Assembly (NCBI RefSeq): GCF_003334815.1
Contig: NZ_QOWO01000017.1
Strand: one strand, 5' to 3'
From: Escherichia coli
GTDB taxonomy: Bacteria > Pseudomonadota > Gammaproteobacteria > Enterobacterales > Enterobacteriaceae
Length of the DNA stretch: 64,000 nt
The notes beneath the pieces were generated by a model. It saw only the letters and a program-made list of their open reading frames with translations, had not been told where the DNA came from and did not search any database. How positions within the stretch are numbered: the first letter of the stretch is position 1; every line of letters begins with the position of its first letter. Position numbers and translations under genes: made by a program. Of the stretch, positions 25,723-29,883 are shown piece after piece.

Positions 25723-26736
25723 TTATCGCGAAGGAGCAATGAGTGAGTCGCGGCGGATCAGTTTTCCGCTGAAGGTTTTCGGCGGTGAGAAATCCCCGCC
25801 ATCGAGCATAAAAATCAGCCGTCCAATAATTTCCTGAATCATCTCAGTCACCGGAATTTTTACGCTGGAGAGCGCCGGAACGGTGTAGGGGGCAATAGCG
25901 ATATCATCGAATCCGATAACTGACACCTGCTCTGGCACCGCTACGCCGCGCTCGTGTAACGCTTTCATCGCACCTATCGCCATATCGTCGTTACTGGCAA
26001 CTAACGCGCTAAATTTAGCCCCACGTTCGAGCAACATTTCTACCCCTTCGGCCCCGCTGGCAGGCGTCCATTTACCGTTAGCGATAAGTTTTTCATTGAG
26101 CGCAATACCATGCTGCGCCAGCGCGTCTTTATACCCGGCAAGACGTTCAATGCTGGTGGGGGAATCCATCGAGCCGGTAAGGAAAGCAATCTCCTGATGC
26201 CCGGCGTTTATCAACTCTGCCACGGCGTTAAAACTGGTCTGTTTATGATCGCACCAGACGCTATGGCTGCTGTTTTTGCGCAGGCGGCGATTAAGCACCA
26301 TTATCGGCTGACTGTGCGCGTCAATGATGTCATCGATCTCATCCACGCTTAAAAAACGCGGGTAAATCATGATCGCGTCGCAGCGCAGATCCAGCAGATA
26401 CTGAATCGCCTGGCGCTCTTCTTCTGCGCTGTGTTTACCATCTGCCAATAGCAACTGCCGCCCTTTCTCTTCCGCCATTCGCGCGGCATGAAAGAGTAAT
26501 TCACTAAAATAAATGCCGTGGTAAAGCGTGTTGGTCACTACCAGCCCCAGCGTCTGAGTACTCTTCGCCGACAGATTGCGCGCCAGCAAGTTTGGACGGT
26601 AACCGCTCTCTTCTACCGCCTGAAACACGCGATCTTTAGTCTCCTGGCTGACGTAGCCATTACCTGAAAGCACGCGGGAAACGGTCGCTTTTGAAACCCC
26701 GGCGCGCTTCGCCACTTCCAGCATCGTCGTCATCAT
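25723..26736 (-). CDS. ascG: LacI-family repressor AscG of the cryptic asc (arbutin/salicin/cellobiose) operon; intact, no IS insertion
   Basis: LacI HTH (MTTMLEVAKRAGVSKATVSRVLSG); start assigned to the ATG with the best SD spacing (M22 of the ORF track), one-codon ambiguity. Confidence 0.88.
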   Translation of the reverse strand: MMTTMLEVAKRAGVSKATVSRVLSGNGYVSQETKDRVFQAVEESGYRPNLLARNLSAKSTQTLGLVVTNTLYHGIYFSELLFHAARMAEEKGRQLLLADGKHSAEEERQAIQYLLDLRCDAIMIYPRFLSVDEIDDIIDAHSQPIMVLNRRLRKNSSHSVWCDHKQTSFNAVAELINAGHQEIAFLTGSMDSPTSIERLAGYKDALAQHGIALNEKLIANGKWTPASGAEGVEMLLERGAKFSALVASNDDMAIGAMKALHERGVAVPEQVSVIGFDDIAIAPYTVPALSSVKIPVTEMIQEIIGRLIFMLDGGDFSPPKTFSGKLIRRDSLIAPSR

Positions 26737-26820
26737 TTTCATCCCTTTACACGCAATCAACGCAGTGTACTGCACCGTTTGCCGATTGTCCTTGCACAAT
26801 CGGCGGGAAAAATATTCAGG

Positions 26821-26907
26821 TGACCGGTTTCACAAATATAAAAAATGAACAATTCACTCTCTTGCTTATTTAGTGACAACTATTCATGATTTTGTGAAAC
26901 CGGTTTC
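26821..26907. promoter_or_regulatory. Two palindromic operator-like sites in the ascG-ascF divergent region: tgaccggtttcaca (26821..26834) and tgtgaaaccggtttc (26893..26907)
   Basis: Near-identical GAAACCGGTTTC palindromes spaced about 72 bp apart, typical of paired LacI/GalR-family operators. Confidence 0.7.
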
Positions 26908-26992
26908 TTAATTCCGTTTCAGCATCGGCATTTTTCCGTCACGTCGACTGATAACAACTACATCTACCCTACTGATAACAGGATAAAATCCG

Positions 26993-28450
26993 ATGGCCAA
27001 AAATTATGCGGCGCTGGCACGCTCGGTGATAGCGGCACTGGGCGGCGTTGATAACATCTCGGCGGTCACGCACTGTATGACGCGGTTGCGCTTTGTTATC
27101 AAAGATGATGCACTTATCGACAGCCCGACGTTAAAAACCATCCCCGGCGTGCTCGGCGTGGTACGTAGTGACAACCAGTGTCAGGTGATTATCGGCAATA
27201 CCGTTTCACAAGCCTTTCAGGAAGTCGTCAGCCTGCTGCCGGGAGATATGCAGCCCGCACAGCCCGTGGGTAAACCCAAACTCACGCTACGTCGCATTGG
27301 TGCGGGGATCCTCGATGCGCTGATCGGCACCATGTCACCGCTGATCCCGGCGATTATCGGCGGATCGATGGTCAAACTGCTGGCAATGATCCTCGAGATG
27401 AGCGGCGTGCTGACAAAAGGATCGCCGACCTTAACCATTCTGAATGTGATTGGTGACGGTGCTTTCTTCTTCCTGCCGCTGATGGTCGCGGCATCTGCCG
27501 CCATCAAATTTAAAACCAATATGTCGCTGGCGATTGCCATCGCGGGTGTGCTGGTACATCCGAGTTTTATTGAACTGATGGCGAAAGCGGCCCAGGGTGA
27601 ACATGTCGAATTTGCCCTGATTCCGGTCACCGCGGTGAAATACACCTACACGGTGATCCCGGCGCTGGTGATGACCTGGTGCCTGTCATATATCGAACGC
27701 TGGGTGGACAGCATTACACCGGCGGTGACCAAAAACTTCCTCAAACCAATGCTGATTGTGTTGATTGCCGCACCGCTGGCAATCCTGCTGATTGGCCCGA
27801 TTGGTATCTGGATCGGTAGCGCCATTTCGGCGCTGGTTTACACCATTCATGGTTATCTGGGCTGGCTTTCAGTCGCCATTATGGGCGCGCTGTGGCCTCT
27901 GCTGGTAATGACCGGGATGCACCGCGTCTTTACGCCAACCATCATTCAGACCATTGCCGAAACCGGCAAAGAAGGGATGGTCATGCCGTCAGAGATCGGC
28001 GCTAACCTGTCGCTGGGCGGTTCATCACTGGCAGTGGCGTGGAAAACGAAAAACCCGGAACTGCGTCAGACGGCGCTGGCTGCGGCGGCATCAGCCATTA
28101 TGGCGGGGATTTCCGAACCGGCGTTATATGGCGTGGCGATCCGCCTGAAACGTCCGCTTATCGCCAGTCTTATCAGCGGTTTTATTTGCGGCGCGGTTGC
28201 CGGTATGGCGGGGCTTGCCAGCCACTCAATGGCAGCGCCGGGGCTATTTACCAGCGTGCAGTTCTTCGATCCGGCGAATCCAATGAGCATCGTCTGGGTG
28301 TTCGCGGTCATGGCGCTGGCGGTGGTGCTGTCGTTTATCCTCACACTGTTGCTCGGCTTTGAGGATATTCCTGTTGAGGAAGCGGCTGCCCAGGCGCGAA
28401 AGTATCAGAGCGTACAACCGACCGTCGCCAAAGAAGTAAGTCTTAATTGA
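26993..28450 (+). CDS. ascF: PTS beta-glucoside-specific EIIBC component AscF
   Basis: EIIB Cys motif (VTHCMTRLR) and polytopic EIIC domain, 485 aa. Confidence 0.93.
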
Positions 28451-28458
28451 GGATGAAA

Positions 28459-29883
28459 ATGTCAGTATTTCCAGAAAGTTTTTTATGGGGCGGCGCGCTT
28501 GCCGCCAACCAGTCTGAAGGTGCGTTCCGTGAAGGTGACAAAGGTCTGACCACTGTCGATATGATCCCACACGGCGAGCATCGAATGGCGGTGAAACTGG
28601 GGCTGGAAAAACGTTTTCAGTTGCGAGATGACGAGTTTTATCCCAGCCATGAGGCGACGGATTTTTATCATCGTTATAAAGAAGATATCGCCCTGATGGC
28701 AGAGATGGGATTCAAGGTTTTCCGTACCTCAATTGCCTGGAGCCGTCTCTTTCCGCAGGGCGATGAAATCACGCCCAATCAGCAGGGCATTGCTTTTTAT
28801 CGTTCTGTCTTTGAAGAGTGTAAAAAGTACGGTATCGAACCGCTGGTCACGTTGTGCCACTTCGATGTGCCGATGCATCTGGTCACCGAATATGGCTCCT
28901 GGCGTAACCGCAAGCTGGTGGAGTTTTTCAGCCGCTACGCCAGAACCTGCTTTGAAGCATTTGATGGTCTGGTGAAATACTGGCTAACCTTCAATGAAAT
29001 CAACATTATGTTGCATAGCCCGTTCTCCGGCGCGGGTCTGGTGTTTGAAGAAGGTGAAAATCAGGATCAGGTGAAATATCAGGCCGCGCATCACCAGCTG
29101 GTTGCCAGTGCGCTAGCCACCAAAATCGCCCATGAGGTTAACCCGCAAAATCAGGTGGGCTGTATGCTGGCGGGCGGTAACTTCTACCCTTACAGTTGCA
29201 AGCCGGAAGATGTCTGGGCGGCGCTGGAGAAAGACCGGGAAAACCTGTTTTTTATCGATGTGCAGGCGCGGGGCACGTATCCGGCTTACTCTGCCCGCGT
29301 ATTCCGCGAAAAAGGGGTAACCATCAACAAAGCACCGGGCGATGATGAAATCCTGAAAAACACCGTCGATTTTGTCTCTTTCAGCTATTACGCCTCGCGC
29401 TGCGCCTCGGCGGAGATGAACGCCAACAACAGCAGTGCGGCGAACGTGGTGAAATCGCTGCGTAATCCGTATCTACAGGTGAGCGACTGGGGCTGGGGAA
29501 TTGATCCACTCGGTCTGCGTATCACCATGAATATGATGTACGATCGTTATCAGAAGCCGCTGTTTCTGGTGGAAAACGGCCTGGGCGCAAAAGATGAATT
29601 TGCTGCCAATGGCGAGATTAACGACGACTATCGCATCAGCTACTTACGCGAACATATCCGCGCAATGGGCGAAGCGATTGCAGACGGCATTCCGCTGATG
29701 GGCTACACCACATGGGGCTGTATTGATTTAGTTTCCGCCTCTACGGGTGAAATGAGCAAACGCTACGGCTTTGTCTTTGTTGACCGTGACGACGCAGGCA
29801 ACGGTACGCTGACGCGCACGCGTAAGAAATCATTCTGGTGGTATAAAAAAGTGATTGCCAGTAATGGGGAAGATTTAGAGTAG
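28459..29883 (+). CDS. ascB: 6-phospho-beta-glucosidase AscB (GH1 family), 474 aa
   Basis: GH1 motifs ([39 protein letters not shown]); start moved to MSVFPESF. Confidence 0.93.

Follow-up and report, generated by a model that had tools for sequence, protein, structure and literature searches.

An AscG operator and an upstream CRP site in the ascG-ascF control region of Escherichia coli

Results

The locus is the asc operon of E. coli K-12

The window, by which we mean the whole 64,000-nucleotide stretch of DNA analysed here, carries the known asc (arbutin/salicin/cellobiose) operon of E. coli K-12, base for base. Positions 25600-30000 are 100% identical to K-12 derivatives over the 4.4 kb compared, as are positions 26600-27100 (501 bp) to MG1655, and window positions convert to MG1655 coordinates by adding 2,812,531. 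The annotated gene order is hypF-hydN-ascG-ascF-ascB-hycI, with ascG and the divergent ascF-ascB pair sitting between hydN and hycI (Table 1). The initial annotation had described ascG, ascF and ascB as full length and free of insertion-sequence interruption, and all three are indeed 100% identical to the reference. The TTG starts at 26799 and 28447 given in the open-reading-frame list are over-extensions of the annotated starts of ascG (26733) and ascB (28459), respectively.

Table 1. Genes and sequence elements of the asc locus, in window coordinates.
Feature	Position	Strand	Description
Putative ascG terminator	25676-25709	-	Hairpin ATGTCATCG-10 nt-CGATGACAT, then C and TTTTT; inferred from sequence
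ascG	25723-26733	-	LacI/GalR-family repressor, 336 aa; RefSeq annotation of identical DNA
Conserved block	26762-26776	-	GGTGCAGTACACTGC (ascG sense); contains putative PascG -10 TACACT (reverse complement 26764-26769)
Inverted repeat	26781-26789 / 26796-26804		GCCGATTGT-6 nt-ACAATCGGC; overlaps putative PascG -35 AGGACA (reverse complement 26787-26792)
Site 1	26819-26834		CRP box GGTGA-CCGGTT-TCACA (GGTGACCGGTTTCACA) with embedded AscG right half-site GGTTTCA
Putative PascF -35 hexamer	26862-26867	+	TTGCTT; TTG at fixed distance from AscG box in 81 species
Putative PascF -10 hexamer	26885-26890	+	CATGAT; 17-bp spacer from -35
Site 2	26895-26908		AscG operator TGAAACCGGTTTCT; overlaps predicted ascF transcription start
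AscG-like half-site motif	26916-26921	+	GTTTCA; ascF leader; candidate element
ascF	26993-28450	+	PTS EIIBC for cellobiose/arbutin/salicin, 485 aa; RefSeq annotation
ascB	28459-29883	+	GH1 6-phospho-beta-glucosidase, 474 aa; RefSeq annotation
REP/BIME palindromic units	29892-29970		Between convergent ascB and hycI

Profile searches agree with these assignments. AscF matches the NCBIfam equivalog NF007311 over its entire length (1025 bits, cut-off 722; 1-485 of 485), and AscB likewise matches NF007356 (1088 bits, cut-off 623; 1-474 of 474). AscF also matches beta-glucoside EII models, although its match to the 618-position IIABC model extends no further than positions 1-468. AscG contains a Pfam LacI helix-turn-helix domain (PF00356, residues 3-48, E 3e-21) followed by a PF13377/PF00532 core (Peripla_BP_3/1), and aligns with LacI at 28% identity over LacI residues 5-333. 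NCBIfam holds no AscG-specific model, and each of its LacI-family models scored AscG below cut-off; family membership therefore rests on the Pfam domains together with identity to the annotated K-12 gene.

The putative ascG terminator went unflagged by the terminator scan because its loop exceeds 8 nt. Beyond the other end of the operon, a sub-threshold match to the REP-derived Rfam family naRNA4 (29857-29922) follows ascB. The REP/BIME segment accounts for many short extra matches per genome in the K-12 identity search.

Site 2 is a functional AscG operator

The divergent promoter region had been proposed to carry paired palindromic operators, a description that holds for the downstream element (site 2) and only in part for the upstream one (site 1). 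Positions 26893-26907 read TGTGAAACCGGTTTC and enclose a perfect 12-bp palindrome, GAAACCGGTTTC, at 26896-26907. Site 2 matches the palindrome TGAAACCGGTTTCA at 13/14 positions and is the sole match to it with at most one mismatch in 64 kb, where 0.02 would be expected. In a cross-species footprint comprising this locus and 80 others retrieved, the site is present in all 81 species, and its core AACCGGTT is invariant throughout. The AscG binding sequence from PascF used in published work is identical to site 2 and confers strong AscG-dependent repression on a synthetic promoter that carries it at +1 (PMC8667592, Table S3 and text), which establishes site 2 as a functional AscG operator. The TTTCA of the half-site motif in the ascF leader recurs 21-23 nt after the start of the AscG box in 45 of the 81 species.

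Site 1 is mainly a CRP activator site

Positions 26821-26834 read TGACCGGTTTCACA and have ACCGGTTTC in common with site 2; the left arm is degenerate and the whole is not a GAAACCGGTTTC palindrome. Against the 14-mer AscG consensus, site 1 matches at 11/14 positions, with 4/7 in its left half, and matches with three mismatches occur at chance frequency (5 found vs 2.9 expected). Against CRP, the same DNA reads as an exact GTGA-N6-TCACA, with 9/10 core positions of the consensus TGTGA-N6-TCACA.

The footprint follows the CRP pattern. The GTGA and TCAC arms are conserved across the 81 species at approximately 2 bits per position, while the 6-bp spacer varies freely (36 different hexamers; 0-0.5 bits in its central positions). 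No AscG-like core occurs at site 1 in 71/81 species, yet the position is kept; the perfect right half-site GGTTTCA is confined to Escherichia- and Kluyvera-type sequences (10/81). In enterotoxigenic E. coli H10407, GGTGACCGGTTTCACA at ascG/ascF is a high-confidence CRP ChIP-seq site (PMC4287617), and ascF counts among the known CRP targets that CRP genomic SELEX recovered as well (PMC3105977). Comparative footprint, ChIP-seq and SELEX together identify site 1 as mainly a CRP activator site, one that CRP occupies in vivo.

Sites 1 and 2 share a perfect 14-nt inverted repeat (ACCGGTTTCACAAA / TTTGTGAAACCGGT). Separated arms of at least 14 nt arose in 0 of 1000 shuffles of the intergenic region, so the repeat is non-random. 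Ishida et al. 2009 is cited in PMC3505978 as reporting two AscG sites at ascFB, and AscG may also bind site 1 in E. coli, possibly more strongly than an 11/14 match implies. A GalR-like (LacI-family) site has been scored in silico at the site 1 sequence (PMC5110547). Binding of GalR itself to both sites, predicted in silico only, is absent from the ChIP-chip peaks and was set aside.

A proposed class I promoter repressed over its transcription start

Scanning the intergenic region with simple sigma-70 promoter and terminator models brought up neither kind of element; the PascF hexamers escape such a scan because they match at only 7/12 positions. We inferred the promoter from cross-species conservation instead. 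CATGAT or GATGAT occupies the -10 position in 57/81 species, and variation within E. coli is concentrated in the promoter spacer, not in the -35 and -10 hexamers. The predicted ascF transcription start falls at about 26897-26898.

These elements suggest the following arrangement. Transcription of ascG proceeds leftward and that of ascFB rightward, the latter from a putative weak sigma-70 promoter (TTGCTT, 17-bp spacer, CATGAT). This promoter would require cAMP-CRP at site 1, whose centre at 26826.5 would lie at about -70.5 to -71.5, a class I position. An AscG dimer on site 2 would cover about -3 to +11 and block RNA polymerase. In Escherichia and Kluyvera the CRP-box spacer also carries an AscG right half-site, where a second AscG dimer could bind weakly in competition with CRP. 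Both the class I mechanism and AscG binding at site 1 are predicted features of the model, and tetramer looping is unnecessary in it. We put a probability of roughly 80% on this main reading: a class I CRP-dependent promoter that AscG represses by binding where transcription starts, while at site 1 AscG and CRP may compete in Escherichia.

The spacing of the two sites probably follows CRP

The initial annotation placed the sites about 72 bp apart and considered this compatible with looping by a LacI-type tetramer. That figure is the start-to-start distance of two differently registered coordinates, and the true centre-to-centre distance is 75-76 bp: 75 bp separate the two dyad centres (26826.5 and 26901.5), and the copies of the shared 9-mer lie 76 bp from each other. 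Across species, the CRP box and the AscG box are separated by 74-75 bp in 76/81, by 73 bp in 1 and by 65 bp in 4. The 65-bp class is exactly one helical turn shorter, and in both of its representatives that were aligned the 10 bp are missing from the stretch that separates the CRP box from the -35 hexamer. Spacings of 75 and 65 bp keep the helical phase in the way that class I activation would lead one to expect, and the conserved distance is best explained by the phasing of CRP with RNA polymerase.

The rival view treats sites 1 and 2 as equivalent operators, across which a tetrameric, bidentate AscG loops approximately 75 bp of promoter DNA, as at lac O1-O3 or gal OE-OI. The perfect 14-nt repeat common to both sites and the two AscG sites cited at ascFB speak for it, as does a distance of 75-76 bp, which lies within the range favourable to LacI loops in a reporter system (PMC3505978). 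However, AscG terminates where LacI residue 333 aligns and therefore has no counterpart of the tetramerisation helix (LacI residues ~340-357). Moreover, LLhA, a chimera that joins LacI's DNA-binding domain to the AscG core, displays a less than 2-fold dependence on operator spacing and no looping signature, a result whose contrast with the two annotated AscG sites its authors themselves remark upon (PMC3505978). The 71 species devoid of an AscG-like core at site 1 indicate that spacing is maintained for CRP and not for AscG, and in a strain that carries ascG the site is occupied by CRP in vivo. We consider looping by an AscG tetramer highly improbable and regard the earlier suggestion as unsupported.

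The ascG upstream region

On the ascG side, 79/81 species retain the conserved block with at most three mismatches at a distance of 25-30 nt upstream of the ATG, and a conserved GACA lies 17 bp upstream of the putative -10 that it contains. The block probably marks PascG, an assignment derived from these conserved positions. We also considered it as an N-terminal coding extension of ascG, with which it is in frame in E. coli, but discounted that reading, since anything from 25 to 30 nt separates it from the ATG, depending on the species. A sigma-54 reading was discarded by eye, the GG-to-GC spacing being off by one.

The 9-bp-arm inverted repeat reported earlier is present; the conserved promoter-like elements put it over the putative ascG -35 and probably not in the ascG leader, where it had been placed. 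A functional role, whether as a leader hairpin of ascG (5') or as the operator of another regulator, could be argued from its perfect 9-bp arms and 6-nt loop and from RNA folding of the region, in which it dominates the local structure as a hairpin. Its conservation argues otherwise. Among 8 Escherichia sequences the ninth pair exists in K-12 only (at 26796, K-12 has A and the other 7 have G), and other E. coli carry changes that break the pairing and are left uncompensated. Outside Escherichia the repeat is absent, again with no compensatory changes, and only ATTGTC is kept, a pattern that fits a -35 element. Arms of at least 9 nt appeared in 100 of 1000 intergenic shuffles (10%) and are statistically unremarkable, as is the fold of the putative ascG leader (z-score only -1.4), and, judging by the promoter-like elements, transcription of ascG would begin downstream of the repeat. 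No RNA family turned up in the asc control region when 25500-30100 was scanned against Rfam at E values up to 1. On balance a function for the repeat is unlikely.

AscG/CRP overlap and the cryptic phenotype

Independent AscG dimers might instead act at both sites without looping, the one on site 2 blocking RNA polymerase and the one on site 1 displacing or competing with CRP. If so, repression would be tighter than in relatives and would contribute to the cryptic phenotype. The restriction of the perfect GGTTTCA half-site to 10/81 sequences of Escherichia and Kluyvera type favours such anti-activation, and the GalR-like in silico score of site 1 (PMC5110547) and the two AscG sites at ascFB, as cited in PMC3505978, are in keeping with it. 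Set against these are the poor left half of site 1 and the chance frequency of 11/14 matches, as well as the observation that AscG placed at -61 of a synthetic promoter is almost without effect, that promoter not being CRP-dependent (PMC8667592). The CRP ChIP-seq signal further indicates that CRP is not excluded from site 1 during growth on fructose (PMC4287617). We regard dual-site anti-activation as a real possibility, at somewhat less than even odds.

A more tentative proposal concerns its origin. The ancestral arrangement may have comprised one AscG operator at the start of transcription and a separate class I CRP box, the spacer of which then gained an AscG half-site in Escherichia and Kluyvera, creating a composite CRP/AscG element. 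The gained spacer would be CCGGTT or TCGGTT, with TCA next to it. We hold this scenario to be plausible but rather less than probable; were it true, anti-activation would have been added to occlusion and could partly explain the tight shut-off ("cryptic") seen in E. coli.

The DNA had further been taken to predict a silent operon, a claim that we cannot uphold. The asc gene set is conserved in many enterobacteria, and the same repressor, operator and CRP architecture occurs in all 80 other species retrieved; it thus predicts a repressible, catabolite-controlled operon and not crypticity. The crypticity of asc in K-12 is known from experiment, not from sequence. What the analysis does bear out is an intact ascG-ascFB locus with a genuine AscG operator, from K-12, where the operon is classically cryptic.

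Discussion

For K-12, literature and databases already describe the asc locus together with its repressor, the operator for AscG and its control by CRP. The useful outcome here is therefore a correction, namely that the upstream "operator" is to be read as a CRP site and that tetramer looping is unsupported. To this the 81-species footprint adds a promoter model, in which a CRP box precedes -35 and -10 elements and an operator spans the start of transcription, and the testable idea that the upstream site was ancestrally a CRP box whose overlap with AscG is a lineage-specific gain.

The closest known system is the K-12 asc operon itself (Hall & Xu 1992; Ishida, Kori & Ishihama 2009, J Bacteriol 191:6136), which has the same genes and shows no difference. 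The looping systems lac (O1/O2/O3) and gal (OE/OI) resemble asc in their LacI/GalR-family repressors and CG-centred palindromic operators, and at asc, too, two related sequences approximately 75 bp apart flank the promoter. They differ from it in that AscG has no equivalent of LacI's tetramerisation helix, the chimera built on the AscG core showed no sign of looping, and the upstream asc site is a CRP box in most species. Class I CRP promoters (lac P1 at -61.5, others at -71.5) share with asc a near-consensus CRP box upstream of weak -35 and -10 elements, and the asc spacing differs among species by one full helical turn (75 versus 65 bp), and CRP is bound in vivo; the asc CRP position of -70.5 or -71.5 is itself counted from a predicted transcription start.

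Anti-activation by CytR at deoP2 and related promoters offers a different parallel. There, as at asc, the promoter is CRP-dependent and its repressor, of the LacI family, has sites intertwined with those of CRP. CytR, however, sits in the space between two CRP dimers and makes contact with them, whereas AscG has its main operator at the transcription start, and where it overlaps CRP the two would compete directly for one box.

The bgl operon, the other cryptic aryl-beta-glucoside system of E. coli, encodes a paralogous PTS permease and phospho-beta-glucosidase. Its control runs through silencing by H-NS and antitermination by BglG and involves no LacI-type repressor, and its permease BglF possesses an EIIA domain that AscF lacks. 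Like asc, bgl is cryptic in K-12, and it is activated by mutation or IS insertion (PMC4488073). Finally, PtxS, the LacI-family 2-ketogluconate repressor of Pseudomonas, differs from AscG in effector, regulon and organism, yet its operator over the -10/+1 region, 5'-TGAAACCGGTTTCA-3' (PMC5902321), is the very palindrome that site 2 matches.

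Sequence and distribution of the asc locus

K-12-derived genomes share the 4.4-kb stretch at 25600-30000 with 100% identity, and of 5426 complete E. coli genomes 4698 contain it at a coverage of 80% or more. Its control region (26600-27100) matches MG1655 NC_000913.3 without differences, which sets the MG1655 coordinate at window position plus 2,812,531. In the RefSeq annotation of DNA identical to it, the genes run hypF-hydN-ascG(-)-ascF(+)-ascB(+)-hycI; longer TTG-start ORFs from mechanical ORF calling are over-extensions. Given end-to-end NCBIfam matches for AscF and AscB, with scores well over cut-off, a LacI HTH and sugar-binding core in AscG, and the K-12 identity, the initial annotation was correct in calling the operon intact and free of IS elements.

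The ascG-ascF intergenic region was found in 4699 of the 5426 genomes. Among the asc-less genomes listed, the match to the longer query was confined to the 129 bp of its hydN end, suggesting that about 13% of E. coli genomes have a deletion of the entire locus. The hairpin directly past the ascG stop codon is probably the ascG terminator, and the terminator scan left it unflagged because of a loop-size limit. In the ascG-hydN spacer, TGGCATGATTTGTGA looks like a -24/-12 promoter of the sigma-54 type; PMC8743547 gives a genomic-SELEX peak of RpoN for hydN/ascG. The REP/BIME segment is the probable source of the additional short matches, tens in each genome, obtained with the 4.4-kb query.

Features of the asc region and a second CRP-type box (window positions)
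Feature	Position	Strand	Description
TGGCATGATTTGTGA	25613-25627	minus	upstream of hydN
Hairpin ATGTCATCG ... CGATGACAT	25676-25709	minus	9-bp arms, 10-nt loop, then single C and TTTTT
ascG	25723-26733	minus	336 aa; RefSeq annotation
Conserved 15-nt block GGTGCAGTACACTGC	26762-26776	minus (ascG sense)	GACA 17 bp upstream
9-bp inverted repeat	26781-26789 / 26796-26804		two arms
Site 1, GGTGACCGGTTTCACA	26819-26834		CRP box; exact GTGA-N6-TCACA
Conserved TTGnnn	26862-26867
Conserved [C/G]ATGAT	26885-26890		17 bp from TTGnnn
Site 2, TGAAACCGGTTTCT	26895-26908		AscG operator; holds perfect 12-mer palindrome
GTTTCA	26916-26921		AscG-half-site-like; 22 nt past AscG box start
ascF	26993-28450	+	485 aa; RefSeq annotation
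ascB	28459-29883	+	474 aa; RefSeq annotation
REP/BIME palindromic units	29892-29970		between convergent ascB and hycI; sub-threshold Rfam naRNA4 match
GTGATCTGATTCACA	48812-48826	minus	exact GTGA-N6-TCACA; about 2861343-2861357 in MG1655

An AscG operator and a CRP box

Of the two AscG palindromes previously proposed in the ascG-ascF spacer, the ascF-side one (site 2) is real and specific, being the sole match within one mismatch of the idealised palindrome TGAAACCGGTTTCA in 64 kb, where 0.02 are expected. It is the very sequence that Guharajan et al. used as "AscG binding sequence from P_ascF"; placed at +1 of a synthetic promoter it brought about strong repression by AscG, and at -61 hardly any (PMC8667592). 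The upstream box (site 1), by contrast, has only its right half in common with this unique palindrome, and its three mismatches to the AscG consensus are at chance level. Site 1 is a CRP box: GGTGACCGGTTTCACA (ascG/ascF) is among 111 high-confidence CRP sites identified by ChIP-seq in ETEC H10407 (PMC4287617), and ascF is one of the known CRP targets, recovered by genomic SELEX too (PMC3105977). The two sites nevertheless pair as a perfect 14-nt inverted repeat (0/1000 shuffles), because a CRP half-site, TGTGA, with AACC after it doubles as TGAAACC, the AscG half-site. Their spacing, earlier put at 72 bp, measures 76 bp between the common 9-mers and 75 bp between dyad centres. The window's second exact GTGA-N6-TCACA, GTGATCTGATTCACA, lies in the divergent ygbI-ygbJ spacer, where it is a possible CRP site for ygbJK, the tetronate/threonate genes.

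Conservation of the spacer across species

Scanning one genome per species yielded 80 loci, from Citrobacter, Enterobacter, Lelliottia, Klebsiella/Raoultella, Kluyvera, Phytobacter, Aeromonas, Sodalis and others, all with the divergent ascG-ascFB layout (80/80). Every one of the 81 distinct intergenic sequences, Escherichia included, carries the AscG box with an invariant core, AACCGGTT, as well as the upstream box, whose GTGA and TCAC arms are conserved around a freely variable spacer (36 different hexamers). An AscG-like core occurs within the upstream box in only the 4 Escherichia and 6 Kluyvera-type sequences. The boxes are 74-75 bp apart in 76 sequences, while 4 have a distance of 65 bp and 1 of 73 bp; two aligned representatives of the 65-bp class have lost 10 bp between the CRP box and the conserved TTG.

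Anchoring the sequences on the AscG box brings out TTGnnn and [C/G]ATGAT, a predicted weak sigma-70 promoter for ascF (PascF) with a start near 26897-26898. E. coli polymorphism falls in the spacer between these elements, both boxes being fixed. Relative to this start, a class I CRP site would fall between about -70.5 and -71.5, or at -61.5 in a few species, and the site 2 operator would cover the start itself.

At the -35 position of PascF, the conserved CTTG bears a loose likeness to the sigma-32 -35 element CTTGAA. The heat-shock sigma section of PMC5493296 gives a genomic-SELEX peak of intensity 3.5 in the ascG-ascF spacer, taken to belong to RpoH. Downstream, TTTCA recurs at offset 21-23 from the AscG box start in 45/81 species; it is absent in Enterobacter and Lelliottia, which have a shortened leader, and in Klebsiella/Raoultella.

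The 9-bp inverted repeat, also reported earlier, is present, and little points to its having a function. Of 8 Escherichia sequences examined, only K-12 has its ninth pair, 26796 being G in the other 7; other variants disrupt pairs, none of them compensatory. The repeat is not conserved in the alignment of other genera, its RNA fold is unremarkable, and arms of at least 9 nt arise in 10% of shuffles. The block GGTGCAGTACACTGC, found with at most 3 mismatches in 79/81 species 25-30 nt 5' of the ascG ATG, fits, together with GACA, a putative ascG promoter (PascG; -10 TACACT, -35 AGGACA), which would place the repeat over the -35 region and not, as first described, in the leader. GGTGCAGTACACTGC is the best-conserved ascG-side element of the intergenic region. 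GGTGCAG at -19 to -13 is nearly invariant too, for which the -10 alone does not account, and the block could be an unrecognised operator overlapping the ascG promoter.

Regulation of ascFB and comparison with known systems

Looping by a LacI-type tetramer, suggested by the initial annotation, is unsupported. The alignment of AscG with LacI covers LacI residues 5-333, where AscG ends, so that AscG has no tetramerisation helix. A chimera pairing LacI's DNA-binding domain with the AscG core had a less than 2-fold dependence on operator spacing; in several others, with GalR, TreR and GalS cores, the dependence was clear (PMC3505978). Where they treat AscG, Swint-Kruse and colleagues give two AscG sites at ascFB, citing Ishida et al. 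2009, and describe AscG as without known effector (PMC3505978).

The mechanism that fits best is class I activation dependent on CRP, combined with AscG occlusion of the transcription start: CRP would activate ascFB, AscG would occlude the ascF start, and in Escherichia competition between AscG and CRP at site 1 is possible. The further statement that the sequence predicts a silent operon does not follow, since all 80 other species retrieved share this conserved architecture, which is therefore not by itself predictive of silence. Crypticity of asc in K-12 is an experimental fact, and AscG inactivation or promoter replacement still did not give efficient growth on cellobiose (PMC4488073). Overall, the earlier observation is partly confirmed and its interpretation partly supported.

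Neither the asc locus nor its regulation is new. In 2009 Ishida et al. reportedly defined the AscG consensus TGAAACC-GGTTTCA, with AscG said to repress ascFB and prpBCDE and CRP to activate ascFB. In E. coli 04A19CPO007 (NZ_CM151383.1), an IS1 lies in the ascF leader, 3' of the AscG operator and 5' of the ascF ATG (3228-3925 of the retrieved asc locus), with ascG intact; it is possibly a natural case of activation or uncoupling, similar to IS activation of bgl. Finally, PtxS, a LacI-family repressor of Pseudomonas, has the idealised AscG palindrome TGAAACCGGTTTCA as its operator, which lies over the -10/+1 region (PMC5902321), as site 2 is predicted to do.
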